Origin: Phoronis australis
Lineage: Eukaryota; Animalia; Phoronida
Length of the DNA stretch: 42,972 bases
Assembly: GCA_002633005.1 (NCBI GenBank)
Contig: NMRA01001174.1
Span: 1 to 42,972 of the forward strand
Direction of reading: 5' to 3'
In this document: positions 7,101-36,969 of the stretch, in pieces
Layout of the letters: every line of letters begins with the position of its first letter
Numbering within the stretch: position 1 is the stretch's first letter
Position numbers and translations under genes: made by a program
Notes under the pieces: model-generated
Seen by the model: the letters and a program-made list of their open reading frames with translations, nothing else
What the model was told of the DNA's origin: nothing
Database searches by the model: none

Positions 7101-10100
7101 TTGCTTTATTTGTGAAGTAATCCAAGCAAAGAGAACATAAAATATGATTGGTATCTCCCATCTGGTGATTTTATAAAAAGTCATGAGTTAATTTCGTTCG
7201 CCTTGCCAAATCAGTGAACCAAAAGTCGTCTCAAACCATTCTGTAAACATGTTACACAACATGCACGGTGTCTGCACTTGAAAAGGAAGGCAAAACGAGT
7301 ACGAAAAACTATAGAATACAATTTAGTTTTGACGGAATTGGTAAACCCGCCTAAAATTTACCATTTCAACTCAATGGCAGGTTACACCTCTCGTTCTTTG
7401 TCACATTATAGACCAAATGATATGGTGCATGCATGCAACCAGCCTAAAAATGGCGGGCTCCAATTTTGAGAATGGGTACCTTTTATTGAAAGAAACGGGG
7501 TACATGTACGTTCACAGCTATGAATTGGGCATTCGCTGAATTTAGTTGGTTCCTGCCTTATCAGTGGCCTTTCGTCTCGTTTTTTCTGAGTTTTTGTTTC
7601 TCTGATGCGGAGTAAGGCTCAACATTTAAAAAGAATAGTATTAGTTTACATGTGCATTATGAGATGTGACATTAATTCAGCCCACAAGTCTTGATCACTG
7701 TGGATTCAAGTGTTCCTTACGTTTTAAAGTATTTTAAAAAATGCGATACCGTCATCTTCAATCCACCATGTCATAGACAATCCTTTCTAAGCAAAATCAG
7801 GCGAAGAATGGATGCAGTGGAAAAAGACGCACCAATTTTGGTATTATCAAAGCTTAAATCTGTAACACTATCGTGTACAATTGGCAGCATTTTAGACCAA
7901 TATGAAAAGAAACAAATGCTTACTTCTTGCGTCAGGTTTTCATTTGACACAAAGTGATAGAGGTCCGTATACAGTTTCACCAAACAGACAGTTTTATCAA
8001 AATTGAGGTTCAAGTCTGAGAAATTTGCAGACTGGTCGACTAATGAGAGTGATGACTTGAGTGAACTTTCCTAGCCTTCGAAAAGAGCAACATCATCAGT
8101 ATATTGCAACAGTTTGCACTCCGTATTTTCAAATTCGTTTCCTTTGCATCATGATTTTTTCCTGAACAATATCTGGAGAAAGATGTCACAAGTGCAGCAA
8201 GTTGCACCAGTTTAAACAACGTCTAGACAGCACCCGAAATCTTGCAGCAACTCCATTCGAAGAATAACATATTCTACAACAGTGTTGTATGTGGATGGCT
8301 CTGATGCCTACTGCTCTCTGCATATAACCAAAATAAGGAGACAGAGTCTACAACCGCAGTTGGTTGAAAAGAGTTCAGAAAATATGCAATATTGCATTAT
8401 AACAAGATTTGAATTCTCTAATAGTGCTTCAAACCAACTTCTAGTACATTCTGCAAAGTTTGTGAAAAAGAATTATTTGTCTCATAAAATTCATGTGCGC
8501 ACCCAGCGGGAGTGAGTCCCCCAACTGGCGAAGTGAATTAAAAGGTCAGCCTCAGAGAAACAAAAAGTCCGAGAAAATGAGACAAAAAGTCCACTAAAAA
8601 GGCACAAACGTACAATTCACATCTCTGGACGTGGTACCCCGTTTTTTAGTCCTTCGGCTTTTTTGTATGTAAAAGGTCCACATCCTCTGAAATTCGAGCC
8701 CCCCATATTAAAGGTTGGGTGCGCGCATGAAAAAGATTGGAAGCAGTAGTCCAAGCAAGGCATGTATATTCTCCGATTTAACGTCTCGCCAAATAGACCT
8801 TTTGAATATCAGGGAGTAACTGCATTTTGACTCGATCGGCAACAACACCTGAAAAACATGCATTAAGCAAAAAGAAGAGTTTCCAATTCTTTAGCTTATA
8901 ACGAGTGTTTTTCTTCTCAGGAATGAGCGTTTTTATACAGTACATGTATCTTGACTCTGTAATTCAGTGGGTCGTCTGTTTTAACTACAGGTGTAGTTAG
9001 CAGTTCTCTGTAACATAGGTAGCAATGATTTTCAGAAAAAAAAAACATCCATTGGAAATCCATCTAACCAGGCAGGTTTTTCGTATTTCACAGTTTTTAA
9101 ACCATCTGCTAGGTCTTCCATAGTAAATACAGATCCAACCTTTGCTAACTTCACGTAATTTTGGAACGACGGTTGCCGATGTTGGTGCTTTCTCACCTGA
9201 CATACTCCCTTGTCTACAGTCAGGATTCTGGGTCGCGGTTATTAGTATCCTATCCCATACCAGTACTTGTTCGACAGACAACTATAGATTGATACGAAAA
9301 ATCACATACATTAGTGAAGCTATAGCAAATTTCCACTGAACACCATGTAATAACCTCTAACAAATTTGTGTAAGGAACAACGAAATAAAGAGGAAAGAGG
9401 GGACATCAATACCGGGTGAACACGAAATACAGTTGTATGGTAATATCAAAATAGGTTATTGGCAGAAGAATTAAGTTCCTGAGGGTGAATATCGGTTGTA
9501 AAACCTTTTGCACAGACAGCATTGGGAAAAAAGGCACGGGGAACACCTTCAAATTAATATGTAAGCGGGTAACAAATGCTCTAAAAACCCATATTCATAT
9601 AAACTCGTTGAAACCATTTTTACCTAAATTAACCTTCTGTGCAAGACCTCTGTCCAGTCAAAGAATCCAAACCCTAATTTTTAAGTCGTTCCGTGAGTTG
9701 AAATGACGTCGCGTGCTCCGCTTTAAAAAGCAGCGCTTTGCACGGCAGTTCTTACGTGCACAAGTGTTAGCTACAAGGGGCATTTATTAATCACGATGAA
9801 ACGACTAGATTTCAGGTGTACAGTTCCGATTTGACCATGCGTATTTCGTCATGATGATTCCGACTGAAGCTGCTGATAAATATTTATCTGACGTAGTATT
9901 AATACATACAGGCTAGGTTTTTGAGAGAAGATTTGTAGAAAATCCCAGCAGTTAAGGACAAACGACGTGATCGTTGTTCACAGATTCCGGATGAGCTGTT
10001 CTAAGTAACAGCGATCACGTAAGCGCAGTTGCCAGGAAGACTTTTATTATCAAATTGTTGCAGGTTTTTCAGATTTGCTCACAATTCTGTCTTCACGCCA

Positions 10101-13100
10101 ACTTATCAGATTTTGCGTTACAATAAAGGAACGCCGAAAATTTTCGTACCTTTCAGTCATTTGACGTTAACATTAACAGGTGCCTATGGTTTTATACACT
10201 CTGTTCAACATTTCCACCAAATTTGCGCTAGATTTTGTTTCGGGGTACTCATTTTTTCCAGGCGTAATGTTTGCACAGTTTTCAATCCATGCGTGGTTGA
10301 TGGTGAAACGTATATTTTCCGGGATATAATTTTCACAAACAATTCCCCAAGTGGCAAATGTTAAAACTTACAGATTCAAAATTTAAGGAAATATGTTAAC
10401 CAAATATGTCACCAAATGCGCGCACCAGGGGAGGCTCGGGGGGCTCGAGCGAACCTATTTTTACAAAACGTGGTTGTCAAAACGTTTCTACATTTTAGTG
10501 GCTTTGATTTATTCTTCGAGAAAACTTATCGTCAATAGCAAAGTATTTCCGAGTACAGTATCAAAAATAAAAGAACCATTTGCTTATCAACAGATTCTAC
10601 TTGGACTTCCAATGTCATCTTTAATGTATTAATCAGATTATCACGCAAGTCACAGAAAAAAGTTATTAATGATTTTATACACTCCACTTTCTTGCGAAAC
10701 TAAGCGGAATCTTCGATGAAAACATAAATTAGAAAAAACTAATAATTGCGTTACACATATTCAAGATACTCAATTGAGATGTTTTCAATGTACATGTAGA
10801 CTGATTCACAAGTTCATTACAAGTGTTTACTCAAATTGGCGAAATCGATTGTGCTCTTTGTACTACAGTGTACCTGTATTTGTACTGATTTCACAGAAAC
10901 TGATGCACATATTTTTGGGTAGTTTCCGTGATGTAAAACCGGTATGGGTTAGATTATTGCCGGCTAAAGCATATCTTCTACAAGAATATTTCTTTATCAA
11001 CTACACTGCAAAGTAGCTCTGTTTGGTTCTTCGTAATCTTAGAAAGTATTTTAGTGTATAATGTTATTTTTGCTTAGCTAGACTTTCGTTATTTAAACAT
11101 AAACTTAAAGGTAGTATTCCAGAGTTTTGAAAACACAAAATAGTATTATTGCATTTATGTAGATTAATGTTAAACACATAAGAGATGTCAATAAACTTAC
11201 GGGTATACTTGCAGCAATTATTTTTTATTGCTTTAGTCGTTTTGTGACATTTTGTGATCAACTTTGCTTGATTAAATACACATGCAGGTGTATAGATACA
11301 TGTAAATGTTCCACGCCCATACACCGTGTATGCATGCATATGTGCTTCACAGTAAAGCAATAAAAATATATGGCTTCATATACTCTACAATAAAGTCAAC
11401 GTCTAGTAGCCTGGGTTATTTGCTACATGTATGTGGTCTGAGCAAAAAGCGTTGTTTTTGGTTTACGTTTATTTTTGTTGTATAACGTGTTCGGTATTGT
11501 TACGAAATGCCTTTATCCAAGCAATAGTTTATATCCTTAGGCAATACTTAACATTGTGGTCATGACACAAGCAAAAATAACAATAACTCGCCTTACCTCC
11601 ACATTTTGCGACATTGCCAAAATCCCAGCTCGCTGTCACGAATTCCAGGTCGCAAAAATTACCCGAAATTTTTATGCGCCAAATTGATTTTTAGGCCATC
11701 CAGAAAATGTTTAGATAAAATGCTCTTACCTTCGGCGTTAAGTATTCTCAAATTTCAGGTTGCATAACTGAGTTCTTAATGTTTGATGTATGTGTTTTCC
11801 TCCGAAGTCGACCGCTTTTGAAATGCCCTAGATGCGCATGTTGCTATGCAAATCAAATAATTCCTTGCCGCCTGACCTTCCCGTAAGGGTTTTCTATATC
11901 TACCGTACTATAGCACATCCTTTCGCGAGTTCAGAGAATTTGTTGCAAGCTTTGGTGGCTAAATGAAAGTTGAGCCAGTGCTCTCTAACCGTTTCGAGTT
12001 ACTAAATATGCAACGTAAACTAGAAGAAAGTAATAGTTGAAAAGAGACGCACGACTCTTTTATTATTGATCTGCCATGTTACTGTAATCGAAGTCGTTAA
12101 AGAAGAAAAGATACTGCTTTTACTCTGAGTGCAATCTTCCTCCATTTGTTTGTTCTTCAAATTTTACTCGACTGACTAAAAAACACGCTTTCGAAAAAAA
12201 TCCGCAAAACGTTTTCCTAGCTGAATGACGTATTGTGCATATACCGCTATCGATTTGGGGGCAGAAATTAAGATGACATAAACAGTTATCAAACAAACGG
12301 CAGGTCATCACGAACAATTAAGAACGGAATGCTGTTTACGTTTTCGTTTATAAGCTTTCTATTAAATAAAAAGCTTCAAATAATACCCATTCCGTGCGGG
12401 TTTCCATTATTGGGTAATTCGAGTTTGCTCCCTTAGCACGGATTCACTGTACACGTGCAGTGCTGTAGTGGTAAAATTAAAGGTAAGTACATGTAGGCGC
12501 CCAAAGCCCATCGTATCACCTTGAGCGCTGAACGTGTCTTACGGTGGATATAGGCGCTATGTTCAAATGCCAAAAGGTGGTTGGCTGCGCCGACGTGCGC
12601 CTACGCCCCACTACAGCACTGTGTAAGTGCCATATACATGTACATGTAACTATGCTGAAAATAGATTAGCCTCAAAACAACACGTGACCCCAGCTTGCAT
12701 ATCGCTATTGCAAGGCCGTACATTCGGAGGCAGAAAACGAATCCGGGATTTTGCTTTTAAACGTTGATGAAAGACTTGCTCTTTTAGAAAACGAATTAAA
12801 TTTTGTTGTTACCGGTAAGTAAAATGAGATTGTGACCTACTATAGACTGCGTAAATGACAAATTGAAACCACGCGGACGTTAACAGGATACAATACAACG
12901 TCTCCTTCGATCACTGCACACGTACTTAAACCGTGCGACTCGAAACATCGCGATCCGGTTACCGTATTTTAAAGTTTTGAAAATAAACTTCAGTGAGTGA
13001 AATTACGGGTGGGGGCTTGCCAGAGCTGTTGGCGCTTTATTGAAGTTTGTCAAAAGTTAAGATGGCGATTAGTAGAGCTGTGGGCGCTTGTTCCGAAAAC

Positions 13101-16100
13101 TTTCAAAGGTAGGGAATACTGTACATGTACAGTGTAGGCGCAAACTTTAGTTTAATTAGTCGTTGTTACGAATGATCGCCGTTTAAAGAAATCAAAAGAC
13201 GTTAAAAGCAAGAAATGATGCAGTACCATGTTTCTGTGCTATGCAACCACCAAGGCGTCAATGTTTGGATATTCTTAACAACCACAATACATGTATTTTA
13301 GCCACCCGCAACATCTCTTCTAATTGTCTTTAGCTGACGTTTCAATTGGAACAGTACTTTTTCCAAGCGAGTTTTAACAATCAGTGACGTAGTCAATTGA
13401 AGACACTAGGAGTAAAAAATTTTCATGGTCAGGTGTTTACGAATAGAAAAATAAAATAATCGCTCACAATTTTACGTCTGCTTGTTTATACATGTTAGTC
13501 TCAATAGCTACATGTACCAACTCAAAACTTGCCTGCTGAAAGAGAAGTCGTGTTCATCGTTTGTAGGGTTGTAATTTACTCGCTTTGTGTCTTTTGCGAT
13601 AAGAAAAACGAGACGCATGTTCAAGCATTATGTTACTTTATATTTCCGAATCATTATCCCCTGATGGGACCTCGACCGTGCACAAAAACAACAGGATCAA
13701 GCAGTGTCGCAATGCGATACTAAATTTATCTGAGATAATGTAATTGAATAATCAAGACATTTTACTTAAAAAATTAACTCATTTTTTTCACCACAAACTT
13801 TGAAAAGTTGATCGTTCCAGAATTTTTGTAAACGTCGCTCTTTTGTGACGTTTTATCATGTATTCTGCCATGACCCAGAACTGTCTTCGGAGCAACAACA
13901 AAATTATGGTCGGACCCACATGAGTTGCTTCATAATTGCCTGGTATATGCTGAGAAGTGTACTACATATAAAATCTCAGTACGCTTATGTTGGAAATTCC
14001 AAGTTGCATACATGGACTTGATACGAGTGGCCAAAACCCGTGCTCTCATAAGAATTTTGGTCTGTACAGTACTACTATTGCAATATGCTAACGTGTCGAG
14101 ACTGAGTTCAATAATAGGTCTTAGTTAACGGGAACGACGTAACTCTGTTTTTAAAATACACTTTAGCAACATTCTTGTCATGGTTGTGCGGCCGTATTTT
14201 GATGTTTTGCGGGCACTCGGTTGATGAAAGTGGATGATGAGATTAATCATTTCGAGTGAATGTCACCCTACTGAAGATCTTGTCTTGGAATTACACTTGT
14301 CAAAAAGTAAGCGAAAGTGACATAGGCCTAATTTTGTTATTTAATCGTGATGCTCCGTTCAAAAGGTCACTAATAAATGTACACTGTACATGTATTGTGA
14401 ACTCAATATTTATTTTTCAAAACAATTAAAACGAACGCAATGACATTTGCTTGATTTCAATCCGGCGGCATTTTTATCGCTCTGTATCAGATTTTGAATT
14501 CTCTAGTGAAATGAAGTACAGTGTTGACGTGCAAATGCATGTCTAATTATTGATGTCCAGATGGTCTTCTATAATAGATGTACTGGTGTAGACGCGACGC
14601 ATTGTATTACTTGAGTGATTTTAAGAAACAATTAAATTTTAAAGATTTATTTAGATATTTTTCAAACAAGCACTAGTTTTACGGTGCAATATGTTGCTAT
14701 AATTACGCATCATTTCCCATATTTTGTACTTATGTTTTACGGTTCATGTTATAATTTTTGGTATGAGAGCTATTACTATATTATACTGTATTATTTCCCA
14801 TATGTACACATCAGTAAGTTTTTTTTACATATTTTGCCATGTAGCCGTGTAGTTTAAGCGGCTTATGTTCAAGATGTTGAACTTTTTGGTAGTCCTTGTT
14901 TGCATGCCATTAAAGCGGTCGTGATATTACCGTTTCATATGAAGCTCTTTGAGTCCACATATTTTTTACCTTTCTCTCTTTGAGAACCATCTCAAGAGGT
15001 AAATCAGCGATCATCTCAAAATTTTCTAGCACAACATAGAAATTTGTATCCTTGTCGAAACAGCATTTAGAACGTCTGTGCGTAGAAAGAGTCAATTTAA
15101 TGTCAAAAACTCAAATTGCAACATCTTTTATTTCGTTAGTCACGTTCTCTTTAATTTATTTCTTGCGATAATGAAATGCCCCTTTAAATATATTCAAGAA
15201 CTGACAAATGTATCAATTTATCGCGTGTACACGCGAAAACTGTCTGGAAAAGCGCTCTTTTTAAAAGCAACGCTTCGCCTGGCCAGACCACTGCCACGTC
15301 GTCTCAAGAACAGAACAAGTTGGGTTTGCGTCGAAATGGGAACCACAAGATTGATTGATTTTCTGAATAGCAATCTTGATAAGAAGATTGATTTTGGTAA
15401 AATGTGTTTCTTCATGTGTTTAATTTGTAGAGCAGGGTTTATCATTTCCAGGATATTGTTCCTGCTAGNGTTTTGGTAAAATGTGTTTCTACATGTGTTT
15501 AATTTGTAGAGAAGGGTTTATCATTTCCAGGACATTGTTCCTGCTAGCATTTTGTTCGAGACAAGTGGAATTGTGTTCCCAGTGCCCGTGTTCCTGGCTA
15601 GTAACAAACCCTATACCAAACATTGCCCAACTTATATTTTCTTAAACATCTTCAGACTTCAGTTTCGTTTTGATAGTACCCCATGCCAATATCATATTCA
15701 CCCTATATTGATGTTCTCTTATCCTTTTATTCCCGATTGTTCCTAACTTTAATTTGTTAGAAATTATTTTGGATCTCAGGAAAAAGTGAAACAGTACTTC
15801 ATAAATTAGTTTGACTACTTGTACATGTATGTTTTTTCAATTCATGCGTCCAGAAGGAATTGGTTTGGGGTAGACCTAATTAAAAGAGATCAGACGACCA
15901 CGAAAGTTTTACTCATATAATTGCAGAGTATATTTGATTTTTAAATGTCTATTACATCATATTTTGTGTCAACATTTTTTCAGCAAATTAAATTTCGTCC
16001 TGTTCATCTGGCTAAAAACGAAAAGTGAATTAAACCATTTACTCTCATGAAATTGATTTCTTAAAAATGATTATTAAGTGTGAAAATCATGGTCATGTTA

Positions 16101-19100
16101 TTGTCAATAACAATGATTGTTCTAGCTACAACCAGTCGCCCATATTTTTAATGAACATGCCATGTCTTTGCTCTGAGGATTATTTCTGACACTAACAAAC
16201 ATACTACGAAAGCGATGTAAACTTGTTCTTTATGAATGATGATCTATTACAAGACAACTGATATATTGCATGATAAACAGAGAGTAGATTTAGTAATTGT
16301 GTGTACAATTGTGTTATTTCAACGTTTTCCGTGAAGAGTAATTAAGATTCACGGTGAAGTTAATGATTGTGAAGTTTGCTATAACTTGTTCATTGTTTCT
16401 GCAGGGTGACACAGCACTACACAGTGCAGCAGAGTGTGGACATACAGAAGTGGCGCGTGTTTTGTGTAAAGCAGGCGCTAACGTCAACAAGCAAGACTGG
16501 GTAATAGAAACTACTTGAGACGATTTTATAATTAAGACAATGTTATCTTTGTTACAAAGTTGTAGACTATCTGAAGTTTAACTAAACCTGTTGTGTGTAA
16601 ATACACTTTTTATTTCTCATCATTTCGACATGTATTTTCAATCTGTACCCGGTACATGTATCTTAAGAAACAGTGAGGTTTGAATCGTGTCAAGAATATA
16701 TTTGGCGACTTAACGTTGATATTTTTCTATTCTTAATGGTAATCGTCCATTCAACATTGCAACTTTATATTAAACAGGAACCCCTTAAACCGGTGTATAA
16801 ACACAACATGGAGGGGTCACTGTGAAGTTATGGAGGCGCTCAGTAATTTCTGACAGTCGACGTCTACACCATGTTCTGTTCTTATTTCAACGTTTTAAAA
16901 TCACCTGTACAACTTGAGTGTTGAAATCATTACAAGTATTGTAGCGTCTTAGAGGTGTCAGTAATGTTTCATTTATGTCACCTTACAAGTTCACTTTGCC
17001 CCGTGTATGTTAATTTGCTCTAAACGTTGATCGTCCATTCACACATCTCCATTATATATTACATAGTTGGGCATGACACCGCTGCACTGGGCAGCACTGG
17101 GTGGTCATACACAGACTGTGGAGTGTCTTGTGGAACACAACGCTACAGTGGATGTTCGTGATAAGGTAATTAATGACACACAGGTTATTTGGTTGAACTA
17201 GTTGTTTACACAAGAGATGATTAAAACTGTTGAAGAACAAATTTTGTAGATATTTTCCCAATTTAATGTCCTTAAACAGTGTCAAATTAAATGTCGTCTG
17301 CTTTCCAACAGAGAACTGCCAAAGCTGCATCCGAACATTTCGGTTAATCCATTATTGTTGTTTTATTTACCGATATATATTCTACATTTCGTCAAACAAT
17401 AGTTTCCTTCAGTCGATCTGGATCGCCTCATTTAGTTTCGGATTTATTTTCTACGTTATTTTGATTGTCCAACACTTTACAGCGCACAATTACTTGCTGT
17501 GTGTTACCGGCCTGTAACCAGACAGGGAACACTGAACACGCTCTGTTGCTTTGTTCTAAAACTTAACATTTCCATGTTGAAATCATTACAGGTATTGTAG
17601 CGTTTTAGAGGGGTCAGTAATGTTTCATTTATGTCACCTTACAAGTTCACTTTCCCCTGTGTATGTTAATTTGCTCTAAACGTTGATCGTCCATTCACAC
17701 ATCTCCATTATATATTACATAGTGGGGCGTGACACCGCTGCACTATGCAGCAGAGTGTGGTCATACACAGACAGTGAAGTGTCTTGTGGAACACAACGCT
17801 ACAGTGGATGTCCGTGATCAGGTAATTAATGACACACAGGTTGTTTGGTTGAACTAGTTGTTTACACAAGAGATGATTAAAACTGTTGAAGAACAAATTT
17901 TGTTGATATTTTTTGTAATCTAATGTCTCTCAACAATGTCAAATTAAATGTCTTAATTAAATAATCGCAAATTGTGATTTTGTTTGTAATTGCTGTCTCC
18001 ACACCACGTGGAGTGACGTGCACGTGACGTGACGTGCTCGCGACATTAAGTAATTAGAAACAGTTTTCTCTTCACCAGTTATACAATGAGCAATGGTTCT
18101 TTACTTGCATTTCCATATCACTCACTAAATTAATGTGACTCTGTTGTACTACATAGAATCAAACTGTGATATTTAAAACCATATTATCAATCGTTTGACT
18201 AAAACAGGTAAGCATTTAAGAAATATCGCTCATTTATATCTGAGTTTAAATGTCAGGTGTAGTCGTGCTCTGTTGAGTCACCGCTTTATACAGTAAGTAT
18301 GCAACTGATGGTGAAGTTCTGGAACAGAAAGGTATAAAACGTGACGTCCTCTTGACACACTCACTTCGCTATATTTAATTATGACCGGAATTCTCTCATT
18401 TTTGTTCACTTTAGAATGGAGACACAACATTACACCTGGCGTCGCAGAGTGGAAAGGCAGCGATCGTAGAGCTGCTTGTCAATGAAGGCAGTTGTGAGGT
18501 GACTGCCGTAAACAAGGTATCTCAAGAGTGCTGCACTCCGAGCTTAGTAAATGTTGCAATAAACGTGTTTTAAATGAATATTGAGTTCGAGGAATTGTTC
18601 ATTCATAATAAATATCTCATCAAAAATGAACAACCTCTTTACGTGGAGTTATACAAAGAGTCACTTCTTCACTGCAAGTACCTTCCCAGAACACGCAGTG
18701 CAACCAGAGTCGCTGGTGTGATCATACTATTGGCATACTAACTAAAAAACCAACCACACCATAAGGCGCCGAACACATACACAGATTTTAATTTTCTCAT
18801 CTCATAAAGTTTATGCAGGTTTTTAATCACGTTAGTGCGCATTTAGGAACCTCACTTAAGTTTTTTCAGTCAAGATTGCTTTAAAAAAGGACTATTTGAG
18901 CAATCAATTTTCTAAGTCACATTGTCGCAAATCCGTTCGGTGCAAACTTTTCGATAGAGTAGTAACAGAGCACAGCACTGTATACTCATCTGGCCCAGGA
19001 TATTCCGTGAATAAAGTCGCTTGAGTTGCAGTTGCTAGTGGAAAACATAATGCCCACACACAAAATGTGTGCTATGATCAGGATCAATCAAAATCGTTTC

Positions 19101-22100
19101 CTTTTGAGTAAAATAAATGAATATCTAAATATTGCGTTGAAATGTCTATTCCTGTTAACAATTTCAATGAAAGTGTCGAATCTCATCTTCTATTAATTAA
19201 TTAAAACCATTTCATAATTACCAAGTACTACAAGATGCGGATTTTTGTCTCAAAACCTTTTGTTGATGCTACGATGGTCAAGACAAAAGTGACAAGACTA
19301 AATCGCGATGTTTGGCGGAAATAAGAAATACGTAAACACTTTAGTTTGAAAGCCATCAAACAAGTTTGGTTCACCCCTCACAGTACCATCGTATTTCGGG
19401 TACCAGGACATAGTTCTCGGCGCAGCATCAAATGCTTTTTGGAATAAACGTTCTGGTCAAAACCTTCCGCTAGACGTGCGCTTTCATAGAAATGCAATTA
19501 CGCAAAAACTTAAATGAATGGACAAAAATATTCATATGTTTAGGAAAGATAAGAGACTCGCATTTCTTAAGATGGATTTCATGTTACGACTGAGACTAAA
19601 TCGAATCATTTTAATATCAAAAAAAACTTTGTTCAAATTTCAACATTGTAGTGAGAAGAACGGTTTGGGGGTTTCAAGTTGTGAGACTGAGTTCTTGAAC
19701 GTAGCATTTTCCATCATGTGTGCAATGAGTGTAATCTGTGGAGAATGTGGAAGTTTTAAAACTCTTTCGGTAATAGCGTTTTGGGGATGGTTTATTATTA
19801 AAATATTTATTCGCATTCCACTTTATAGTTTCAAATGTATGAACTAATAGAATGACAACCCTTTCGTATTTACTTTAGTCACTTCCATCATTATTAAAGA
19901 TGCTATATTACAGTATAATTCAATCACTTTCCTTTCTATGAGATTTATCGGGTAACATAAACTATAATCGATGACTATGGTGCAACCTACTTTAATTTCT
20001 TAGGTGTGAGCATTTTAGTACCCGGAAAACAAAATAGTTCAACAGAGGAGAAATGGACTGCAGATTACTCGAATTTGCAATAACCCCCTCAAAGTGTCTT
20101 ATTTGTGATCCGACTGCACGACTGTGTATGTTCCTGGCGTGATTTGATTTATGTACTCTGTAATGATGTTAACTTCCGAGCTCCATACGACGTAAATTGG
20201 CATGGCTTGTTTGTAAAACGTATTTAAGCCACCGATCCGGTCATAACCACCTTTCGCCGCCACTTGCACAATCTTTTTTCTTATAAATTGTGAATTTTTA
20301 GGCCCCCAGTTTCGGCTTTAAAAACCTCAGTTTCCATTATTTTTTTCCGTACAAATTGTAAGTCATTCTTGACGCATACCTGTATAAATTGCCAAGGAGC
20401 TCCTTACTGAAAGATGCACAAAATCGTACAAATAAACATGTAGAGAACTGGAAATGTGTGTATGTTTTAATATTTGATTGACGTTTATGAAGTGAAACTA
20501 CATGTGAAGGGTTCGTTGCTCTATGATTTGCATGTTTATGCTTCGACGAAAATCGGCAATTCTCCGATTTGCGAATAAAATCTGCCAATTATTAAAAAAC
20601 ATCTTCAGAAGATTGAGCTTCTAGACCCCCAAGCAACAAGTTCCGTAGATTCCAAAAAGGGCTAAGTATTTTAGTACTTTGATGTTTTAGGGCACTTTTA
20701 CCAAGGAAATTCAGTGAACCGAGGTGTAGAGCTGAGACAATAACTGTGGTGTGTCAGTAAACGTTTTTTTCATTGGTTTCCTTTTATAAATTCTGAATAT
20801 TTGGCATGTAAGCCAGTGTGTTTGTGTGTTTCATGTATTTTTACCCTACATGTATATGCGCGTCTTTAGGCCAACACGTAAAATGAAATATTATAAAGCC
20901 TACAAAACATGCAAGTATACAAAGGATATCCACCTGCGCCTATAAGAGAAGCATTATGCATGCGTTTGTGCGAAACATTTGAGTATGTAAATTTCCTTAT
21001 GGCAGTTATATTGGATATAGGTGCAAGTGCCTAAATGTGTGAACCACACAATGCTCTCCACTGGGTTACACTTTTCATTGTTTACTTAAAAAATTTCGTA
21101 TACTGTTCTTCTTTAGAATTAAAGTGCATTACAATGTGCCACGTAAACAAATCTCATACAGTGTATGCTCTAGTGGTCGAATGAATGTCAGTGGCATTCT
21201 GAATACGTGCTGTGTTGTTATTGAAACACAGAGGTTGGTTCCTGAAAGCTATTCCCACTTCGACAAAAGATTGACCAAATTCAGTTGTCGCGATATACAT
21301 GTAGGCTGAGCATCACCTGTTTTGTGATTAAGGCATTTTAAGATGGAAATCAGTGCTTGTCCGATGTTTCTTACACGACGACAATCTCAAGACTGTCGTG
21401 AACACATCGGCCTCGCGTCATCAGCTCATCATTTAGGCGAAGGTCAGTCGACGTCCGGTTGAGTGTCACCAGATCGCCAACAGATAATTCTACGACTTAA
21501 TCTGCCGAAAACACTTTGCCTAATGGTGCTTCAGTTGCTGCGTGTTGACATCGATGGCACGGACTGCGCTCCGGAAAATTTCCAAGCAATTGCCCGCCTT
21601 CCATCGACAAAAATGCGAGCCACCTAATTGTTTTAAACGTGATAGTGTCTTGATACTACCCACCAAGCACAATGATACCTTTGTTTCTGTTTGGCTTACT
21701 ATTATACGTGTGTGTTAAGGATTTGAATGCCCAACAGTCTACGTATTTTGATAATGCTTAAAAACATGAATTGTAACATTGTTAATGTTTGTAGTTTCTG
21801 AAACTAAACTACAAAATTTGATTTTTACCTCTACTACTCTGTCATTATTTGCATCACGTGACTTAACAGAAAGGAAATGTACATGATAACAAAACAAGAT
21901 TTTATTTCGTATAAATCTTTAAGATGAGATCTCAAAACGTTGTTACTGTTTCTAATACACCTGTTCGTTTTTTGTATAACTCGTGAAGATCCCTGTTGAC
22001 AGCCTCTCATGCAAAAATGCATTGTTTTAAAAACAATTACGTACAGTGTGTTGGCAAACAGTGCATAAAAATAGTTTCTGAGTCCGATCAATCCTTTTGA

Positions 22101-25100
22101 GATAGGGTACTCCGAAGTTATCCAAATTGGACATTTCCCTGGAACCCACACAATCTTAAAGAACAAGCGCCTCATACAAAGCTGCTGGTTACATATTTGA
22201 AAAAGCTTGAGTGAAGTCAAGGAGCAAAATTTACAAATCAAGTGAACAAATAAGTTACGACACACGCTGGTGTGTCAGATGCTATCTGGAGAATTACTAT
22301 CGACCACGTGATGCGTGAACAATTAGGGCATTTCACTTTGAATCTACATGCGCTATTCCCGTTCTCGTCCGTCTTTATTGAGAGTGTAATATCGCTCTAT
22401 TCTGTAATACCCGAAATTGTTCGGCAATAAAATGCCCTTCGTTATGTGACTGAAATAAATCATAGCTGTTTCATTTTGAACTTGGAGTAGTTTTTGACAG
22501 TTTAAANTGTCAACAATATATTTGGCGACTTAACGTTGATATTTTTATATTCTTAATGATAATCATCCATTCAACATTACAACTTTATATTAAACAGGAA
22601 GCCGTTAAACCGGTGTATAAACACAACATGGAGGGGTCACTGTGAAGTTATGGAGGCGCTCAGTAATTTCTGACTGTCGACGTCTACACCATGTTCTGTT
22701 CTTACTTCAACGTTTTAAAATCACCTGTAACACTTGAGTGTTGAAATCATTACAAGTATTGTAGCGTCTTAGAAGGGTCAGTAATGTTTCATTTATGTCA
22801 CCTTACAAGTTCACTTTCCCCCGTGTATGTTAATTTGCTCTAAACGTTGATCGTCCATTCACACATCTCCATTATATATTACATAGGGGGGCGGGACACC
22901 GCTGCACTATGCAGCAGGGTGTGGTCGTACACAGATAGTGAAGTGTCTTGTGGAACACAACGCTACAGTGGATGTCCGTGATGAGGTAATTAATGACACA
23001 CAGGTTGTTTGGTTGAACTAGTTGTTCACTCAAGAGATGATTAAAACTGTTGAAGAACAAATTTTGTTGATATTTTCCCAATTTAATGTCCTTAAACAAT
23101 GTCAAACTAAATGTCGTCTGCTTTCCAACAGAGAACTGCCAAAGCTGCATCTGAACATTTCAGTTGATTCATTATTGCTGTTTTATTTACCTATATATAT
23201 TCTACATTTCGTCAAACAATAGTTTTCTTCAGACGATCTGGATCGCCTCATTTAGTTTCAGATTTATTTTCTACCTTATTTTGATTGTCTAACACTTTAC
23301 AGCGCACAATTACTTGCTGTGTGTTACCGGCCTGTAACGAGACAGGGAACACTGAACACGCTCTGTTGTTTTGTTCTAAAACTTAACATTTCCCTGTTGA
23401 AATCATTACAAGTATTGTAGCGTTTTAGAGGGGTCAGTAATGTTTCATTTATGTCACCTTACAAGTTCACTGATCCCCTGTGTATGTTAATTTGCTCTAA
23501 ACGTTGATCGTCCATTCACACATCTCCATTATATATTACATAGGGGAGCCTGACACCGCTGCACTTGGCAGCAGGGTGTGGTCATACACAGATAGTGGAG
23601 TGTCTTGTGGAACACAACGCTACAGTGGATGTCCGTACTCAGGTAATTAATGACACACAGGTTATTTGGTTGAACTAGTTGTTTACACAAGAGATGATTA
23701 AAACTATTGAGTAACGAATTTTGTTAATATTTTTTGTATTCTAATATCTCTCAACAATGTCAAATTAAATGTCTTCTGCTTTCCATAGTCGGGCCACACA
23801 CCGCTGCACCTGGCAGCACAGGAGGGTCATACAGCCGTCGTACAGTGTCTCATCGAACACCGGGCCAACGTGAATGTTCCTAATGAGGTAATTATTGACA
23901 CACAGGTTGATGAACACAATACGTGACTAGGCTAATTATTGCGTGTTTTAATTAAATAATCACAAATTGTGATTTTGTTTGTAAATGCTGTCTCCACAGC
24001 ACGTGGAGTGACGTGCACGTGACGTGACGTGCTCGCGACATTAAGTAATTAGAAACAGTTTTCTCGTCACCCGTAGTTATACAATGAGCAACGGTTCTTT
24101 ACTTGTATTTCCATATCACTCGCTAAATTAATGTGACTCTGTTATACTACATAGAATCAAATTGTGATATTTAAAACCATATTTTCAATCGTGTGACTAA
24201 AACAGGTCAGCATTTAAGAAATCTCGCTCATTTATATCTGAGTTTAAATGTCAAGTGTAGTCGTGCTGTGTTGAGTCACCCGCTTTATAGAGTAAGTATG
24301 CAACTGATGGTGAAGTTCTGGAACAGAAAGGTATAAAACGTGACGTCCTCTTGACACACCCACTTCGCTATATTTAAGGATGACCGGCATTCTCTCATTT
24401 TTGTTCACTTTAGAATGGAGATACAGCATTACACCTGGCGTCGCAGAGTGGAAAGGCAGCGGTCGTAGAGCTGCTTGTCAATAAAGGCAGTTGTGAGGTG
24501 ACTGCCGTAAACAAGGTATCTCAAGAGTGCTGCACTCCGAGCTTAGTAAATGTTCCAATAAACGTGTTTTAAATGAATATTGAGTTCGAGGAATTGTTCA
24601 TTCATAATAAATATCTCATCAAAAATGAACAACCTCTTTACGTGGAGTTATACAAAGAGTCACTTCTTCACTGCACGTACCTTCCCAGAACACGCAGTGA
24701 AACCAGAGTCGCTGGTGTGATCATACTATTGGCATACTAACTAAAAAACCAACCACACCATAAGGCGCCGAACACAGACATAGATTTTAATTTTATCACC
24801 TCATAAAGTCTATGCAGGTTTTTAATCACGTCAGTGCGATACGAAGATATTCCGCGAATAAAGTCGCTTGTGTTGCAGTTGCTAGTGGAATACATAATGC
24901 CCACACACAAAATGTGTGCTATGATCAGGATCAATCAAAATCGTTTCCTTGTGAGTAAAATAAATGAATATCTAAATATTCCGTTGAAATGTCTATTCCT
25001 ATTAACAATTTCAACGAAAGTGTCGAATCCCATCTTCTAGTAATTAATTAAAACCATTTCATAATTACCAAGTACTACAAGATGTGGATCTTTGTCTCAA

Positions 25101-28100: not shown

Positions 28101-31100
28101 AAAAAGTTACAACACACGCTGGTGTGTCAGTTGCTATGGAGAAACAGTAACGACCACGTGATGCGTGAACAATTAGGATATATCAATTTGAATCTTAAAA
28201 ACAAATTCTATTGTATGCACTATTCCCGTTCTCGTCCGTCTTTACCGAGAGTGTCATGTCATTCTATTCTGTAATACCCAAAATTGTTCGGCAACAAAAT
28301 GTCTAGTTTGTTCTGTGACTAAAATAAATCAAAGCTGTTTCATTTTGAACTCGGTTTAGGTTTTGATAATTTAATTTGCATTTGCACGAGTTGTTCATTC
28401 AGCAGTGCAAATTTGTTTTTTGTTTGTCAACAAATTTCAATACATCTTGTAGGGAGGCAACACGTTGCTGCACAGCGCGTCTTCGCATGGCAAGCTAGCA
28501 GTTGTTGAACTGCTTCTGAAAATGGGTGTCGATCCGACAGTTGTTAACACGGTAAGGGTACATGTATCAATCAAATTGTGTGGTACATGTAGCTGTATGC
28601 TATCTGTGTCTGTATTGGATGTTTGCCAAAGGATAGGTAACCGGTGTTTGTAGGCATCATAACTCATTACAATTGTATATGTAATTATTGTGTATCTTCT
28701 GGTACAATGGAACAGCGTCGACGGTTGCTGGCAAAAGTCCTTTTCTACTTTTGTGTAAGCATCGAAGCGATTATCGACACGGAATTTTTAACTAATTTAA
28801 ACTTTTCATTTGATGTAGGAGCCAGATCACTATGTGATTGCTTAAAATTTGAAGAACCAACAGTTAAAAGAAGTCAATAACTTAAGTGAAGTATTATCAT
28901 TTCATTCTCCACGTTGTGTAATCGTTTTCTCTGTTTAATACGCCAATCTACCAGCCTCGCATTGCTCATTTGGAGATACAGTGTACATGTAGGTGCAGGT
29001 ATCGGGTTCGTATTGGTCCAGTTCACGTGCAACTTTAGCACACGGTAGGAAGTAAATTTTACATGAGTTGTCTTGCTGTTCAGTGTACTCTTTAAACTTA
29101 GCTATGTCTTGCAGGACGGACGAACAGCTTATGATGTCTGTGGCGACAGCTGTAATGTGTTTTTTAACAAGGTCGACGATGAGACTATCGAGAAAATAAA
29201 GAAAGTTCTTGAGGTAGGTAGTAGGGAAAAATAATCAGATTCTTGCTAAAAAGACCATATCGCTGCTTTTGTGATTAATGTAATAAACGCCATATGCACA
29301 GTTGGGAGAAAGTGCCGTGTTCGAGACCGGATAGGGACTGAGATGTTTTCAGACTTAACTATAAACCACGTGATGCGACCAACAGATGGCGTGTAAGACG
29401 ATTGATAATTCTCAGTTCTTGTATATTGTTTCAGTCTTATTTGGTTACAAATATACACCTCGCTCAGGCGGGTACAAGGAAGGTTTTCTCTCACTGCACT
29501 GGTTATCCTTGTATCATTTAAACAGCTCAGGACATCATGTAGTAAATACTTGTGTTTAGATTTTTGTTTTATTTTAATTGACAAATCGTTGTTCACTGTA
29601 GAAGCATATGCGACTCAAGCAGCAAAGCGGAAAATCACCGTCAGATGAAGACCCGGATGAAAATCTCCTCATATTGTTAGGGAGTCTGGAGGGATATCTA
29701 AATTCGAAACGTCCAGACATCCCTGTCGGCGAGTTGGACGTCAGCGTAAAAATAAAAAAGAGAGAGGACGGCACATTCCAAATGCTGAGTGTGGATACTA
29801 AGCTGATGGGTACGCCTATTATACATTGTGACTAAGTATAACCTAACATACATGTAAACTTAGTCTTCATAGACCGTTAACTTCCATATATAACGATATT
29901 TTAATGGAGGCAATTTTAGAGTTCAATACTATAAGCTGTCATTAGAATGGCGAAATTTTGCTACGAAGTGCACGATGACAGATCATTTCCAGAAGAATAG
30001 AACCGTTACTTGTTTCATTTCATTACCTGTCTGATGTATTCAAAGACAAGAGGTGACTATGACTTGCTTGCCCCTCTTCCCTTACCGCTGGGCTTTGTCT
30101 TTTTACAAATTTCGTCCCAGGCGCGTGCTACTCCCCTCTCAGCGACGCCTTTCTATTCCCCGGTGCCTGGATAGCTGCGTTTCGCGTCTTGCGGGCGTAC
30201 CAACGTTTCCGACGAATTAGTCTTTCTATATCCGCAGTACCCTTCACTCGGGCATCCGTGACCTAGTACATGTAGATAATATTTACACATAAACCAAGTG
30301 AAAACTCTTGTTTACAAACACGTTCCCAGCAATTGTCGATTATTCGGTTTCAGCACAAAGATTTAACCACCACTGCTACAGTATTCTGAGTCACTTGTGA
30401 TAGACTACATAAAACCATACTAAATTTTCACATCACAGGTTTTTCCTCAAGTTTAGGTCCTCTTTTGGTTTAGCGTATATGCAAATGATTTCGTAAATAG
30501 TGTGGATTTTTTCAAGTGCCTTCTGAACGCAAAGCATGCCATTGTTATCAATGGCTATTGTCAGTGTATTACGAGCCAGGACTAGGAATTACATAGAAAC
30601 TAGCTACGTATTGGCTTCCTGTAAGATAAACTAATGGTCAAGAAATTCAACTATATGAGTTTTAATTGCAATTATTAACTTTGTAAAATTTCGACATCGT
30701 TGTTAAGAACCAATAACTCATAATTACAAGGTGGTTAATGATGTAAAGAAGATGTTATTTGTGTACAAAATTACATTTATGTGTGGGATGTCCTTGTTTT
30801 CTCGTATATTCTCGTTTTCTGCAAACAACACAAGTGATTACTAGTGATAATTCTCCACGAAAATATAGAAAGTTGATGACAATCTCCGATTATAGTGAGA
30901 AAAATGCGTTGTTATATAATAGTTAGGTACTGAAATCGTCAAGTGGTTTATTTTAAAAATAAAATGAACACCAACGAGTTTGACTGTGCGTGGGGAAGTG
31001 GTATCGCTCAGCAATGGAGGAATAATGCACGGGAACAGGGCGTGTTTGTCCGCCACGCAGTGAAAAGTGGTTCATGAGGGCAAACTATGTTCGCTAGAGG

Positions 31101-32289
31101 GGAACAGCGTGTACGTCAACAAGATTTGGCTCGTTTACAGGGGATTGTAGGTCTATCAAAACGAAATAAATGCCGATTTTGTGAATTTAAGTGTACGGTA
31201 ACTGCCCGTCTAAGTTTACAAGTTTCATGTACTTAAAATACACTGTTTAAGGACGATTCATCTCATTTTCAGACTATTTCCCACTAGTTGTGCCCGTAAG
31301 GCAGTCCTGTCTTTTGGGCAAGTTTCCTGAACAGGGTCAGAACGTGATATCGGCTGAGCTCCACGAGTCATTGGCCAATGCGCTGAAGTCGGTTGTTCTA
31401 CTTGCACGGGCGGACGCACAAGGAGTGGGGTCCGGCTTCCGAGTAGGGCGCAATTATGTGATTACAAACTATCACGTGTACCAATGCCTGAATGTCCCCA
31501 GTAAGTATTTTGTCTGTTGATTGAATGTATGAATCCGGGTTTTTGTAATTCGCCTAGGACACATGTATAATGGTTCCACTTTCCCTGCTGTAATCAAGGA
31601 CCGGAATTTTAAGAGTTGGGTTAGATTTATAGGCCTATTTTCAGTTGTCCCCAGAGTTGCGCTGTGTATCGTCACTTGCCAATCTAATGCACTGTGATGA
31701 CGACTAGTCTGNNNNNNNNNNNNNNNNNNNNNNNNNNNNNNNNNNNNNNNNNNNNNNNNNNNNNNNNNNNNNNNNNNNNNNNNNNNNNNNNNNNNNNNNN
31801 NNNNNNNNNNNNNNNNNNNNNNNNNNNNNNNNNNNNNNNNNNNNNNNNNNNNNNNACTGTGCTTCTGCACCTCCCACTGAGGGCGCTGGCGTCGCTGTAC
31901 TTTCCGTGGGCTCGCCGTCGTAAAAACCGTTTAATTTGTAATTTCAGGTTTCTGAGTTAAACCAATGGGCACAGCGGACATTTCCTGGCCGTGCCGTATT
32001 CCCACAAATCGACGACCCACGACGAGTTCTTTACCGAACAAGTCTACAGTTTGGCAAAGGCAGCTCAGGAAGTCCTGGTTTTGTACCCGATGACAAACAT
32101 GAGGCGTGCGTCGCCGCGATACAGACACGTGGATTTCCGGATTTGCCAGATTTTCATTTCGTTTCCCAAGAGGTAGTCAAGGCTCGTTCTGTGGAGCAAG
32201 GGGTCAGGGTGGAGGCTGTCTATGACTTCCTCCACACCAACCACCCTGCACTTTGTCAGGATATCTTTGGCAACAATAAGCCTAGTTAA
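1049..32289 (+). CDS. Multi-exon gene: ankyrin-repeat array (N-cap, 9 internal repeats, C-cap) + linker + FAM111-like trypsin-fold serine protease
   Basis: GT-AG exons 1049-1105, 3597-3686, 16405-16500, 17067-17165, 17723-17821, 18415-18516, 22887-22985, 23544-23642, 23789-23887, 24414-24515, 28453-28551, 29115-29213, 29602-29809, 31273-31500, [missing exon(s), probably in gap], 31948-32289. Phases are compatible through exon 14 and there are no internal stops. Confidence 0.82.
1257..1608. mobile_element. hAT-like MITE
   Basis: Left end cataGGCGGATTTAGG pairs with right end CCTAGATCCGCCacg. GC-rich interior with poly-G and poly-T tracts. No clean TSD. Confidence 0.5.
3012..3042. repeat. (CAA)n microsatellite
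   Basis: acaacaacaactacaacaacaacaacaacaa. Confidence 0.9.
3597..3686 (+). CDS. Exon 2, N-cap ankyrin repeat (VLEAALDGNCSELVKYIKRGWDVDQVLNSS)
   Basis: Acceptor tttttttcag, donor GTGAGT, 90 nt, phase 0-0. The LxxAAxxGN...G-DV pattern runs directly into GDTALH of exon 3. Confidence 0.8.
5848..6565. repeat. Diverged interspersed direct duplication A-B-A'-B'
   Basis: ~5848-5961 resembles ~6368-6478, and ~6150-6236 resembles ~6487-6565. Confidence 0.75.
6700..6839. mobile_element. Small MITE with ~21-29 bp terminal inverted repeats
   Basis: cgttcagtaacgctaggacct at 6700 is the reverse complement of aggtcctagcgttactgaacg ending at 6839. Related diverged pieces at ~4585-4631 and ~2250-2312. Confidence 0.7.
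7428..8729. mobile_element. Non-autonomous DNA transposon with long degenerate TIRs (CA...TG ends, hAT-like)
   Basis: 7428-7605 (catgc..aaccagcc..gggctccaattt..cctttta..aaacggggtac..gtctcg..gtttctctga) is mirrored in reverse complement at 8550-8729. No intact transposase and no TSD seen. Confidence 0.65.
12458..12621. mobile_element. 164-bp hAT-like MITE
   Basis: Perfect 14-bp TIR CAGTGCTGTAGTGG / CCACTACAGCACTG. The flanking 8-mers tacacgtg and tgtaagtg match 5/8 (possibly a decayed TSD). Confidence 0.8.
15392..15547. repeat. 77-bp direct duplication centred on a single N (likely contig-overlap artefact)
   Basis: 15392-15468 repeats at 15471-15547 with 3 substitutions. N at 15469. Confidence 0.85.
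16405..16500 (+). CDS. Exon 3, ankyrin repeat (GDTALHSAAECGHTEVARVLCKAGANVNKQDW)
   Basis: Canonical ankyrin consensus, ttctgcag acceptor, GTAATA donor, 96 nt, phase 0-0. Confidence 0.93.
17067..17165 (+). CDS. Exon 4, type-A ankyrin repeat (LGMTPLHWAALGGHTQTVECLVEHNATVDVRDK)
   Basis: 99 nt, catag acceptor, GTAATT donor, TPLH motif. Confidence 0.93.
17723..17821 (+). CDS. Exon 5, type-A ankyrin repeat (WGVTPLHYAAECGHTQTVKCLVEHNATVDVRDQ)
   Basis: 99 nt, same splice context as exon 4, 656 bp downstream of it. Confidence 0.93.
18415..18516 (+). CDS. Exon 6, type-C ankyrin repeat (NGDTTLHLASQSGKAAIVELLVNEGSCEVTAVNK)
   Basis: 102 nt, tttag acceptor, AAG|GTATCT donor, phase 0-0. Confidence 0.9.
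22887..22985 (+). CDS. Exon 7, type-A ankyrin repeat (GGGTPLHYAAGCGRTQIVKCLVEHNATVDVRDE)
   Basis: 99 nt, AG/GT bounded. Positional counterpart of exon 4. Confidence 0.9.
23544..23642 (+). CDS. Exon 8, type-A ankyrin repeat (GSLTPLHLAAGCGHTQIVECLVEHNATVDVRTQ)
   Basis: 99 nt, AG/GT bounded. Positional counterpart of exon 5. Confidence 0.9.
23789..23887 (+). CDS. Exon 9, type-B ankyrin repeat (SGHTPLHLAAQEGHTAVVQCLIEHRANVNVPNE)
   Basis: 99 nt, ttccatag acceptor, GTAATT donor. Absent from duplication copy 1. Confidence 0.93.
24414..24515 (+). CDS. Exon 10, type-C ankyrin repeat (NGDTALHLASQSGKAAVVELLVNKGSCEVTAVNK)
   Basis: 102 nt. Counterpart of exon 6. Confidence 0.9.
28453..28551 (+). CDS. 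Exon 11, ankyrin repeat (GGNTLLHSASSHGKLAVVELLLKMGVDPTVVNT)
   Basis: 99 nt, cttgtag acceptor, GTAAGG donor. Confidence 0.92.
29115..29213 (+). CDS. Exon 12, C-cap of the ankyrin array (DGRTAYDVCGDSCNVFFNKVDDETIEKIKKVLE)
   Basis: 99 nt, cttgcag acceptor, GTAGGT donor. GxTAxD and I..vL pattern typical of a terminal repeat. Confidence 0.88.
29602..29809 (+). CDS. Exon 13, linker (KHMRLKQQSGKSPSDEDPDENLLILLGSLEGYLNSKRPDIPVGELDVSVKIKKREDGTFQMLSVDTKLM)
   Basis: Phase 0 acceptor ctgtag, phase 1 donor G|GTACGC, open frame (ORF 29608). Confidence 0.78.
31273..31500 (+). CDS. Exon 14, N-terminal part of the trypsin-like protease with catalytic His (...KSVVLLARADAQGVGSGFRVGRNYVITNYHVYQ...)
   Basis: Phase 1-1 exon, ttttcag acceptor, GTAAGT donor. 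GSGF...ITNxHV motif with the His codon at 31473-31475. Confidence 0.88.
31712..31855. other. Assembly gap (144 N)
   Basis: Run of N. Confidence 1.
31948..32289 (+). CDS. Terminal exon, C-terminal part of the FAM111-like protease with catalytic Ser (...DDPRRVLYRTSLQFGKGSSGSPGF...VAAIQTRGFP...SVEQGVRVEAVYDFLHTNHPALCQDIFGNNKPS*)
   Basis: atttcag acceptor, 113 open codons to TAA, GSSGSP motif with the Ser codon at 32065-32067. Missed by the ORF track because there is no start codon near its 5' end. Confidence 0.88.
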   Translation, partial: VSELNQWAQRTFPGRAVFPQIDDPRRVLYRTSLQFGKGSSGSPGFVPDDKHEACVAAIQTRGFPDLPDFHFVSQEVVKARSVEQGVRVEAVYDFLHTNHPALCQDIFGNNKPS

Positions 32290-35510: not shown

Positions 35511-36969
35511 ATTAAAACAAAAACTTCATCGTTACCTTAATAAAACAAGGCACAGTTTTTATTGATGTGTTCCTTTCGTTATCAAATAACGATTGCGTAA
35601 TAATTTGAATTTATATGTTCACAATTGTGTCTAAGTGTTTCAGTCGTGTTTTCTCTAAAACCGCATTTTATTTACGAATTGTTTCTTTACACAGCTCTCC
35701 AGGAAGACACAAGGTGGCGCTTGCTACAAATTTAAATATTCACCATTTCAATGAGATACAGCAGGTTTAATTGGACCTTTGGTGCCGTTTGATACACTCT
35801 TCAGTACCCGGATGTAGTCATGTTCACCCGAAATTTACAGATAAAGGCTTTTTGATAGGTAAAAAATGAGCAGGGATTTATTGTGTGACATACATCGTAG
35901 ATAGACCATGACATACATGAAGGCTGCAATGCAGAACTTCCCCATAGTAGTATGTAAAAAAATCATTTCAGTTAGAAAGTAAAAACTAGTGATCCTGATA
36001 CATACAGTGTGTGTGGCTAAAATTTCTATTACCATTGCGAACAAAAATATTAGAATCACTTCCAAGGCAAGAAAACGTTAATGGAGCTTACTGTGAAGTT
36101 GATAATGGTACATTCTTAGTGACTTGAGTTCAATGGAAACTGAAATAGAACTCCCATCTGGATAAGAAACATTTAGAGGCCGATATTTTCCACCATGGAT
36201 GGGTGAAACACTGCTCTACCTCCCACACCCCGCCAACCCGCGATCGAGAACGCCCGGAAGGCGATCGAGAACGAGACCTTGAACCAAAAATGGCAGACGG
36301 GGCAGTGACGTAACAGGTGAGTTTAAGTGTCGTTTTTTGCTTAAAGGCGACTTTGGTACAAATGCTACACACAGGAAAACGTCAATGAGTAACCTTGTTG
36401 GGGATGTGAAATAATACATGGCTTTTGCTTATTTTTCAAAATAAAGACCTCAGGAAGCAATGGCATCGTAAAATCGACAATTTCTACTTGTTATTAGCAA
36501 GTCCAGGGTTCTTAACAAGAGACGTGTGACGTTTATAGTTCAATCGTCCCTGGTGACACCTTTGTTAGTTATGATTTGTCAAACAATTTGAGATATTTAC
36601 CAATACAAGCAGGTCCTTGTATGAGACGGCGATCGGGAACGAAGTCGTTAATTCTCTATGGCGATCGTGAACGCTACAAAAGCGATCGTGAACGCACATT
36701 TTTTCCCGTATTGGCCTGAATAGTCCTTCAAGTTACGGTATTATGTCAATAATTTTATATTACTACGGAGCCTGAATTAGTTGGTGGGTTGATTTTCAAT
36801 TACATTTCATCGTATTTTAATGATTTCAAAGTGAGATTTAGCCAAACAAACATAACTGAATGCATTTTGATTTTTCTCAGTTGAATTGTAGCCACACCAG
36901 GAGTCCTTCAGGATGTTTACGTCCACGCCTTCAAAAAAGAGTAGTACAACTGCTGCATGTCACAAAAAG

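Follow-up and report, generated by a model that had tools for sequence, protein, structure and literature searches.

Gene model and expression

The window analyzed here is the whole of contig NMRA01001174.1 (positions 1 to 42,972; 42,972 nt) of the Phoronis australis assembly GCA_002633005.1. It carries a gene in which ankyrin repeats, four of them encoded by hypervariable exons, are followed by a predicted FAM111-like protease, and whose product may serve as an intracellular immune sensor. The gene model comprised 15 predicted exons (1049-32289, + strand, as for all exons below), and joining exons 1-14 gave an open frame of 525 stop-free codons. Splicing was examined with RNA reads from three other samples (X6, X7, and X8) of one study, and the DNA runs used below came from one sample, which may be the assembly's own source.

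Exon 1 (1049-1105) was predicted from an ATG, 19 codons of basic character, a GT donor, and a frame running on into later exons; by eye, no hydrophobic leader was apparent in its peptide. Exon 2 (3597-3686; AG/GT, phase 0) had no Pfam match and may encode a degenerate ankyrin-like N-cap; exon-2-like letters were found before exon 3 in loose ends of the RNA reads. Ankyrin repeats were encoded by nine exons of 96-102 nt, all in phase 0 and holding one repeat apiece, with joints seen spliced in RNA. Pfam Ank (PF00023) scored above its cut-off in all 8 of those scanned, the ninth (24414) was recovered with our own hidden Markov model (HMM), and a six-frame HMM scan of the window returned these nine ankyrin exons, on the + strand only.

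The first ankyrin exon, exon 3 (16405-16500; Pfam Ank E 1.4e-10), was spliced to the hypervariable exons, as read from RNA loose ends. These four exons, termed cassettes A (exon 4, 17067-17165), B (exon 5, 17723-17821), C (exon 7, 22887-22985), and D (exon 8, 23544-23642), were each 99 nt long with AG/GT borders in phase 0 and matched Pfam Ank at E 4e-10 to 7e-9. Exon 9 (23789-23887) was an older ankyrin cassette with 66-70% nucleotide identity to A-D. Spliced GT..AG joints linked C, D, 9, and 10 in RNA, and cassette-to-cassette joints were present too. Exon 6 (18415-18516; Pfam Ank E 8e-7) and exon 10 (24414-24515; joint 23885-24412 recovered from each of the three RNA runs) were counterparts and probable alleles, with 4 differences between them, 3 of which were non-synonymous. 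Transcripts of exon 6 continued into exon 11 (28453-28551; Pfam Ank E 9e-8), the start of which followed exon 6 or 10 in RNA loose ends. The ankyrin part is an expressed, spliced gene; exon 1 and the joins from exon 11 onward are predictions.

Downstream, exon 12 (29115-29213) was predicted from AG/GT borders and frame as a terminal half-repeat with a helix, and exon 13 (29602-29809; AG/GT, in frame) as a linker without a known domain; neither had a Pfam match. Exons 14 (31273-31500) and 15 (31948-32289) would encode the two ends of the protease. Pfam gave zero matches to NACHT, NB-ARC, or ROC-COR among 13 exon peptides, and Rfam gave zero matches in the window.

Two copies of the cassette region

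The cassettes lie in two 5.8-kb copies (16688-22506 and 22508 to about 28370) that differed at 373 of 5597 columns, with a lone N (22507) exactly between them. A second single N, at 15469, bore the same join signature, as a near-duplicate of 78-79 nt (15391-15554) stood on both of its sides. Ends of the exon-6 type and of the exon-10 type both ran into exon 11 (78 and 91 reads, respectively, in X8), and no joint from exon 6 to a cassette occurred among the 15 of 147 joints listed. One DNA contig equaled 22302-22506 without a difference, while its other 64 letters were not placed from 22508 on, where the tool may split at the N. The apparent duplication is thus likely to be two haplotypes joined at the N. 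Against such a join, 51 reads of X6 and 40 of X7 had, ahead of a cassette, an exon-6-like sequence that had diverged (by eye, at 7 of 30 letters); some member of the family therefore has a repeated module.

Under a haplotype join, A/C and B/D are alleles, and A/B and C/D are tandem paralogs. The four near-identical cassettes described in the initial annotation therefore stand as four exons; as four fixed tandem paralogs they are unlikely, and that default reading was rejected because N 22507 lies between the copies. The exon-9 cassette was absent from copy 1, where a 174-nt deletion was found at 17952, and this difference is a repeat-number polymorphism only if the copies are haplotypes. The intron between the cassettes also held a fragment of a high-copy repeat (about 17337-17460 and 23235-23281), with a DNA contig depth of about 9,000-12,000 and RNA on both strands.

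Variation among cassettes and in their introns

When the cassettes were re-read, their positions and the residues previously given for codons 1, 3, 8, 11-12, and 32-33 were recovered. The counts of the initial annotation were also reproduced, with amino-acid changes at 11 of 33 codons among A-D and synonymous differences at 2 sites (codons 17 and 30), both private to A. Amino-acid identity between pairs of cassettes was 73-82%, and two adjacent cassettes amount to 66 aa. The constant framework that had been proposed holds as a pattern, as its segment 'TQ.V.C' allows E or K at position 19; as a fixed framework it does not, with position 19 variable and codons 2, 14, and 17 varying too.

Cassettes A and C differed at 15 of 99 nt in the exon and at 3 in the 146 nt of intron upstream, as had been reported, and the segregating columns numbered 18 of 99 in the exon versus 12 of 208 in the flanks (Fisher p=0.0015). 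The upstream flank that served as the control was itself unusually homogenized: the intron flanks of the cassettes differed by 0.015-0.034, while the local intron background between the long copies was 73 of 1852 (3.9%). The exon excess survived this stricter comparison (A/C p=8e-6, B/D p=0.006); against the background of the whole copies (6.7%), B/D was not in excess (p=0.13).

These backgrounds bear on whether the exons diverged only through relaxed constraint and local gene conversion, with a binding face that merely tolerates change and converted flanks that exaggerate the contrast. The homogenized flanks suit this explanation, and so does the finding of 15-18 differences in some intron windows of 99 columns at a distance from the cassettes; the comparison of codon sites given below argues strongly the other way.

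Selection on the binding face

The binding face was fixed beforehand from a designed ankyrin library (PMC3308923), in which module positions 2, 3, 5, 10, 13, and 14 were randomized as one exposed surface. These positions correspond to cassette codons 33, 1, 3, 8, 11, and 12, respectively, by alignment to the published module rather than by a model of this protein. All 6 of the 6 face codons were among the 11 variable codons (p=4e-4), which bears out the earlier remark that the variable sites are largely those randomized in DARPin libraries. The original DARPin set reportedly has position 33 in place of 10, and the cassettes match it at 5 of 6 positions.

The mean pairwise pN was 0.46 at face codons versus 0.055 elsewhere, and pS was 0.04-0.05 (0.04 over the exon); outside the face, pN equaled pS. 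By hand count, at least 14 changes were needed at 14.4 non-synonymous face sites versus 2 at 24.2 synonymous sites (p=5e-5). A one-ratio codon model of the whole exon gave an omega of 4.3 (2dlnL 5.4, p=0.02 versus omega 1). With four sequences of 99 nt the power is low, and likelihood tests are inflated by recombination, which makes the omega result fragile.

Tolerance of the face positions was controlled with 299 gap-free natural ankyrin repeats from 120 proteins. In these ordinary repeats the face positions had an entropy of 3.5-4.0 bits, which is what mere tolerance would predict, and 12 positions exceeded 3 bits, split equally between the face and the rest of the repeat. However, the tolerant off-face positions 15, 24, 27, and 31 were invariant in the window, and none was among the listed read variants. 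Read heterozygosity (two positions summed) was 0.66-1.23 on the face versus 0-0.28 at equally tolerant off-face positions (Mann-Whitney p=0.002, with unlisted sites taken as zero). Moreover, relaxation cannot raise pN to ten times pS within one exon. Relaxed constraint with gene conversion was therefore largely refuted and is considered very improbable.

The cassettes are thus very likely under diversifying selection on their binding face, and this argument holds whether the copies are haplotypes or a true duplication. The strong diversifying selection proposed in the initial annotation is supported by an omega above 1, by the clustering of variable sites on the concave face under the alignment mapping, and by the variants in reads of other samples described next. 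That the variation alters ligand specificity, as was also proposed, is a plausible extension of this result.

Variation in reads of other samples

Reads were mapped on cassette B at 80% likeness, which gave 454, 388, and 1111 RNA reads in the three samples and 231 DNA contigs. The RNA reads had almost all the same orientation, and in X8 about 860 lay on the exon versus 140 and 55 in the flanks. The listed variants were 40 of 83 rows, with their ranking unstated, and comprised 35 in the exon, 5 downstream, and 0 upstream.

The six face codons held 24 of the 35 listed exon rows (p=9e-11, the rows not being independent). Even in the worst case, with all 43 unlisted rows placed at non-face positions of the exon, the share would be 24 of 78 (p=0.005). 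Three alleles were seen at nine listed sites, each of which was the first or the second position of codon 1, 3, 11, 12, or 33. Junction letters, decoded by hand for 12 of 48 rows, added further in-frame residues: R, E, D, A, and V for codon 1, and W and P for codon 3. In RNA junction letters, hairpin positions also varied in the exon-9 cassette and in the final codon of exon 3 (16498-16500), so the variability reaches beyond the four cassettes. The depth of intron 3 was several times that of the long intron; this depth and the number of contigs suggest several paralogs, although neither is a measured copy number. A 30-nt cassette motif had 0 exact matches in metagenome contigs.

Errors in the consensus were rejected as the source of the differences, because spliced RNA reads of other samples varied at the same codons. 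RNA editing was rejected likewise, because DNA contigs held most of the same letters and the base changes were of all twelve kinds. The selection of read variants has its own weaknesses: they mix alleles with paralogs, the RNA came from a single study, and fewer than half of the rows were listed.

Each sample showed many multi-nucleotide codon variants concentrated at few codons, as would be expected if cassettes were diversified within each animal by targeted somatic hypermutation, editing, or cassette exchange. In contrast, most of the alternative letters in RNA also occurred in DNA contigs, frequencies were similar across separate samples, and the range of base changes had no editing bias. 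The six-frame HMM scan, which covered the window alone, found no orphan or inverted repeat exons that could serve as donors. Somatic diversification is thus a far-fetched explanation, and a germline origin of the diversity is preferred.

Generation of the variation

A block that began about 146 nt upstream and ended about 90 nt downstream was homogenized among the four copies. Within about 350 nt, the informative sites supported three incompatible partitions of the copies: AC (-119, -65), AB (+1, +50), and AD (+24, +55, +121), with AC again from +191. These partitions fit repeated gene conversion or unequal exchange, and recurrent mutation at selected sites could contribute. In the proposed process, selection would keep point mutations at face codons, and gene conversion and unequal crossing-over through the homogenized intron flanks would spread them among cassettes, alleles, and paralogs. 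Each allele would then hold about two cassettes, with or without the older exon-9 cassette, and the diversity would be germline. Among short inverted repeats near the cassettes, no convincing case of Dscam-like docking pairing was seen by eye, without a shuffle control.

The predicted FAM111-like protease

A search with the last exon (31948-32289), which carries the Ser motif and the stop codon, returned 15 representatives at E <= 0.001 among 1.84 billion; one of them (P0131) was dropped as a low-complexity match. Trypsin_2 was matched at E <0.01 in 10 of the 14 remaining relatives. Ten relatives were looked up, and the 5 that were named were all bivalve. A profile of the last exon and the 14 relatives matched FAM111A structures only in PDB (8S9L and 8S9K; E 1.5e-23 and 1.8e-22), the next match being at 0.07. 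The homology to FAM111A is transitive, because the last exon alone gave no such match. Exon 14 (31273-31500), with the His motif, aligned with the relatives in hhalign (probability 90%, E 1.5e-6) at HMM positions 16-62 and would form the N-terminal part of the protease. Both motifs (His and Ser) were intact, as was the C-terminal helix of FAM111 type, and all three aligned to the FAM111 relatives.

Other searches added little. Word-index protein searches gave 0 hits among 58 candidates for the last exon and 0 among 79 for exon 14; PDB searches with single exons gave nothing significant; two structure predictions for the last exon had low confidence (pLDDT 41 and 55) and were set aside; and leads from the ESM Atlas were trypsin-like only. 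A profile search with the cassettes was swamped by generic ankyrins (best identities 31-67% among the best 120 of 3410 matches). Exons 12-13 had no Pfam match to a UBL domain, and no UBL-specific profile was run.

Several observations weigh against a working fusion. About 115 profile positions (62-177), which include the Asp motif of the relatives, matched nothing when the window was read in six frames. Because the phases of exon 14 (which ends in phase 1) and exon 15 also disagree, the copy may be broken. Ankyrin was found in 0 of the 15 protease relatives scanned (the 14 and a longer cluster member, P0138), which leaves no second example of the fusion. A 144-N gap (31712-31855) lies between exons 14 and 15. 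The missing residues, with the catalytic Asp, are probably located in this gap, the size of which would have to be underestimated; no in-frame candidate exon resembling the missing part was found beside it.

If these observations are taken at face value, the ankyrin array would be diversified and the protease dead or a separate gene, so that the product would be a pure binder or adaptor. No read linked exon 11 to exons 12-15, where no search of the reads was aimed at these joins, and this also agrees with such a binder. Yet the N gap stands exactly at the place of the missing part, the frame through exon 14 is free of stops, and both motifs and the C-terminal helix have been retained. A dead or separate protease was therefore judged rather improbable, and an ankyrin-protease fusion is, from its predicted exons, probable.

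The relatives belong to a group of FAM111-like proteases (P0121-P0138) whose named members are bivalve; several have low-complexity N-termini rich in basic residues and serine, with no Pfam UBL match.

Proposed function

A variable ankyrin face together with a predicted FAM111-like protease makes an intracellular immune sensor-protease likely. FAM111A is an intracellular antiviral restriction protease with UBL domains that are probably regulatory and that are absent in two invertebrate examples (PMC9798293). The protein encoded here would be cytosolic or nuclear, with five to six ankyrin repeats that form a groove and include two or three hypervariable ones. The groove would bind a foreign, probably viral, protein, and binding would recruit the target to the protease or switch the protease on. 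The ankyrin array would thereby take the regulatory place thought to be held by UBL domains in vertebrate FAM111. The ligand, the protease activity, and the immune role are putative, and a probability of about 55% was given to the whole mechanism of a germline-diversified intracellular immune sensor-protease.

The same ankyrin-protease could instead have been shaped by allorecognition, by conflict involving gametes or selfish elements, or as a decoy or guard that evades a pathogen inhibitor, and such self or decoy pressure would leave the same sequence signature. Hypervariable repeats in fungi are best known from allorecognition (PMC13449251), and the antagonism of FAM111A by viruses (PMC9798293) suits a decoy or guard. 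On the other side, the variation extends over what seem to be multiple paralogs, a pattern known from immune families (231 DNA contigs on one cassette, and the depth of intron 3), and no self partner is singled out by the data. These pressures are considered unlikely, and immune sensing of foreign proteins is preferred.

More tentatively, the gene may represent a so far undescribed class of intracellular receptors in animal immunity. In such a multigene family, a natural DARPin library, held in interchangeable ankyrin exons and reshuffled through unequal exchange and gene conversion, would be wired directly to a FAM111-type protease without an NLR ATPase. If true, a recognition system would be added to invertebrate immunity, the ancestral role of FAM111 might have been defense with exchangeable sensors, and recognition and cleavage of pathogen proteins could be programmable.

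Other features of the window

Two kringle exons of a neighboring gene were found on the + strand at 41066-41332 and 42202-42477 (Pfam Kringle E 9e-8 and 4e-19, respectively). These kringle exons, the spliceosomal introns, and the bivalve names among the protease relatives fit an invertebrate animal. The arms of an inverted repeat (36228-36274 and 39506-39552; 47 nt, 94% complementary) lie 3.2 kb apart around an N gap and possibly mark a DNA transposon; between them, 37102-37330 has zinc-finger-like Cys/His spacing split over two frames. A tandem repeat of 43 nt in 3 copies occupies 1-135.

Comparison with known systems

Hypervariable sensors of near-identical repeats are known from fungi and from brown algae, where most are carried by NLR or ROCO scaffolds. 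The gene is similar to fungal NLRs with highly internally conserved (HIC) ankyrin repeats, such as Podospora Pa_3_8560 (PMC4986451, PMC13449251), in its near-identical repeats with selected inner-helix and beta-hairpin sites, its possible repeat-number differences, its concerted evolution, and a predicted enzymatic effector in one chain. Selection on the concave face has been described for fungal ANK NLRs (PMC4986451). Unlike these proteins, no NACHT or NB-ARC was seen here, the repeats are N-terminal with one per exon, the predicted effector is a FAM111-like protease, and the host is an animal. The HIC definition asks for 85% identity or more across 100 aa or more (PMC4986451); the present cassettes reach 73-82%, with about two near-identical cassettes per allele (66 aa). 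HIC repeats occur in animal NLRs too (PMC13449251), which gives the principle a precedent in animals.

The ROCO-LRR and NB-ARC-TPR genes of Ectocarpus (PMC3341825, PMC11378527) share with the present gene one repeat per exon of the same phase, diversification of the concave face, and gain and loss of exons. They differ in that the repeats here are ankyrin rather than LRR or TPR, no ROC-COR or NB-ARC was matched, and the window held no inverted or orphan repeat exons. By these features, the predicted protein belongs to neither the fungal HIC NLRs nor the Ectocarpus receptors.

With FAM111A/B and invertebrate FAM111-like proteins (PMC9798293; PDB 8S9K, 8S9L), the predicted protein shares a C-terminal trypsin-2-type domain, the His and Ser motifs, the C-terminal helix, and a predicted intracellular location. 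Its hypervariable ankyrin N-terminus sets it apart, as does the unseen Asp region, and the word ankyrin has 0 occurrences in the review PMC9798293. No report of an animal ankyrin cassette or of an ankyrin-FAM111 protein was found in the open-access literature; a relative may be listed among the HIC proteins tabulated in PMC13449251. What is new is the occurrence of this design in an animal, with no ATPase seen and a FAM111-like protease as the predicted output.

Designed ankyrin libraries (PMC3308923, PMC9611651) are similar in their constant framework and in variation at positions 2, 3, 5, 10, 13, and 14. The present cassettes are natural and selected, position 1 (codon 32) varies too, and the residues at their variable sites include Gly, Cys, and Pro. 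Selection very likely varies the same six positions that were chosen by protein engineers.

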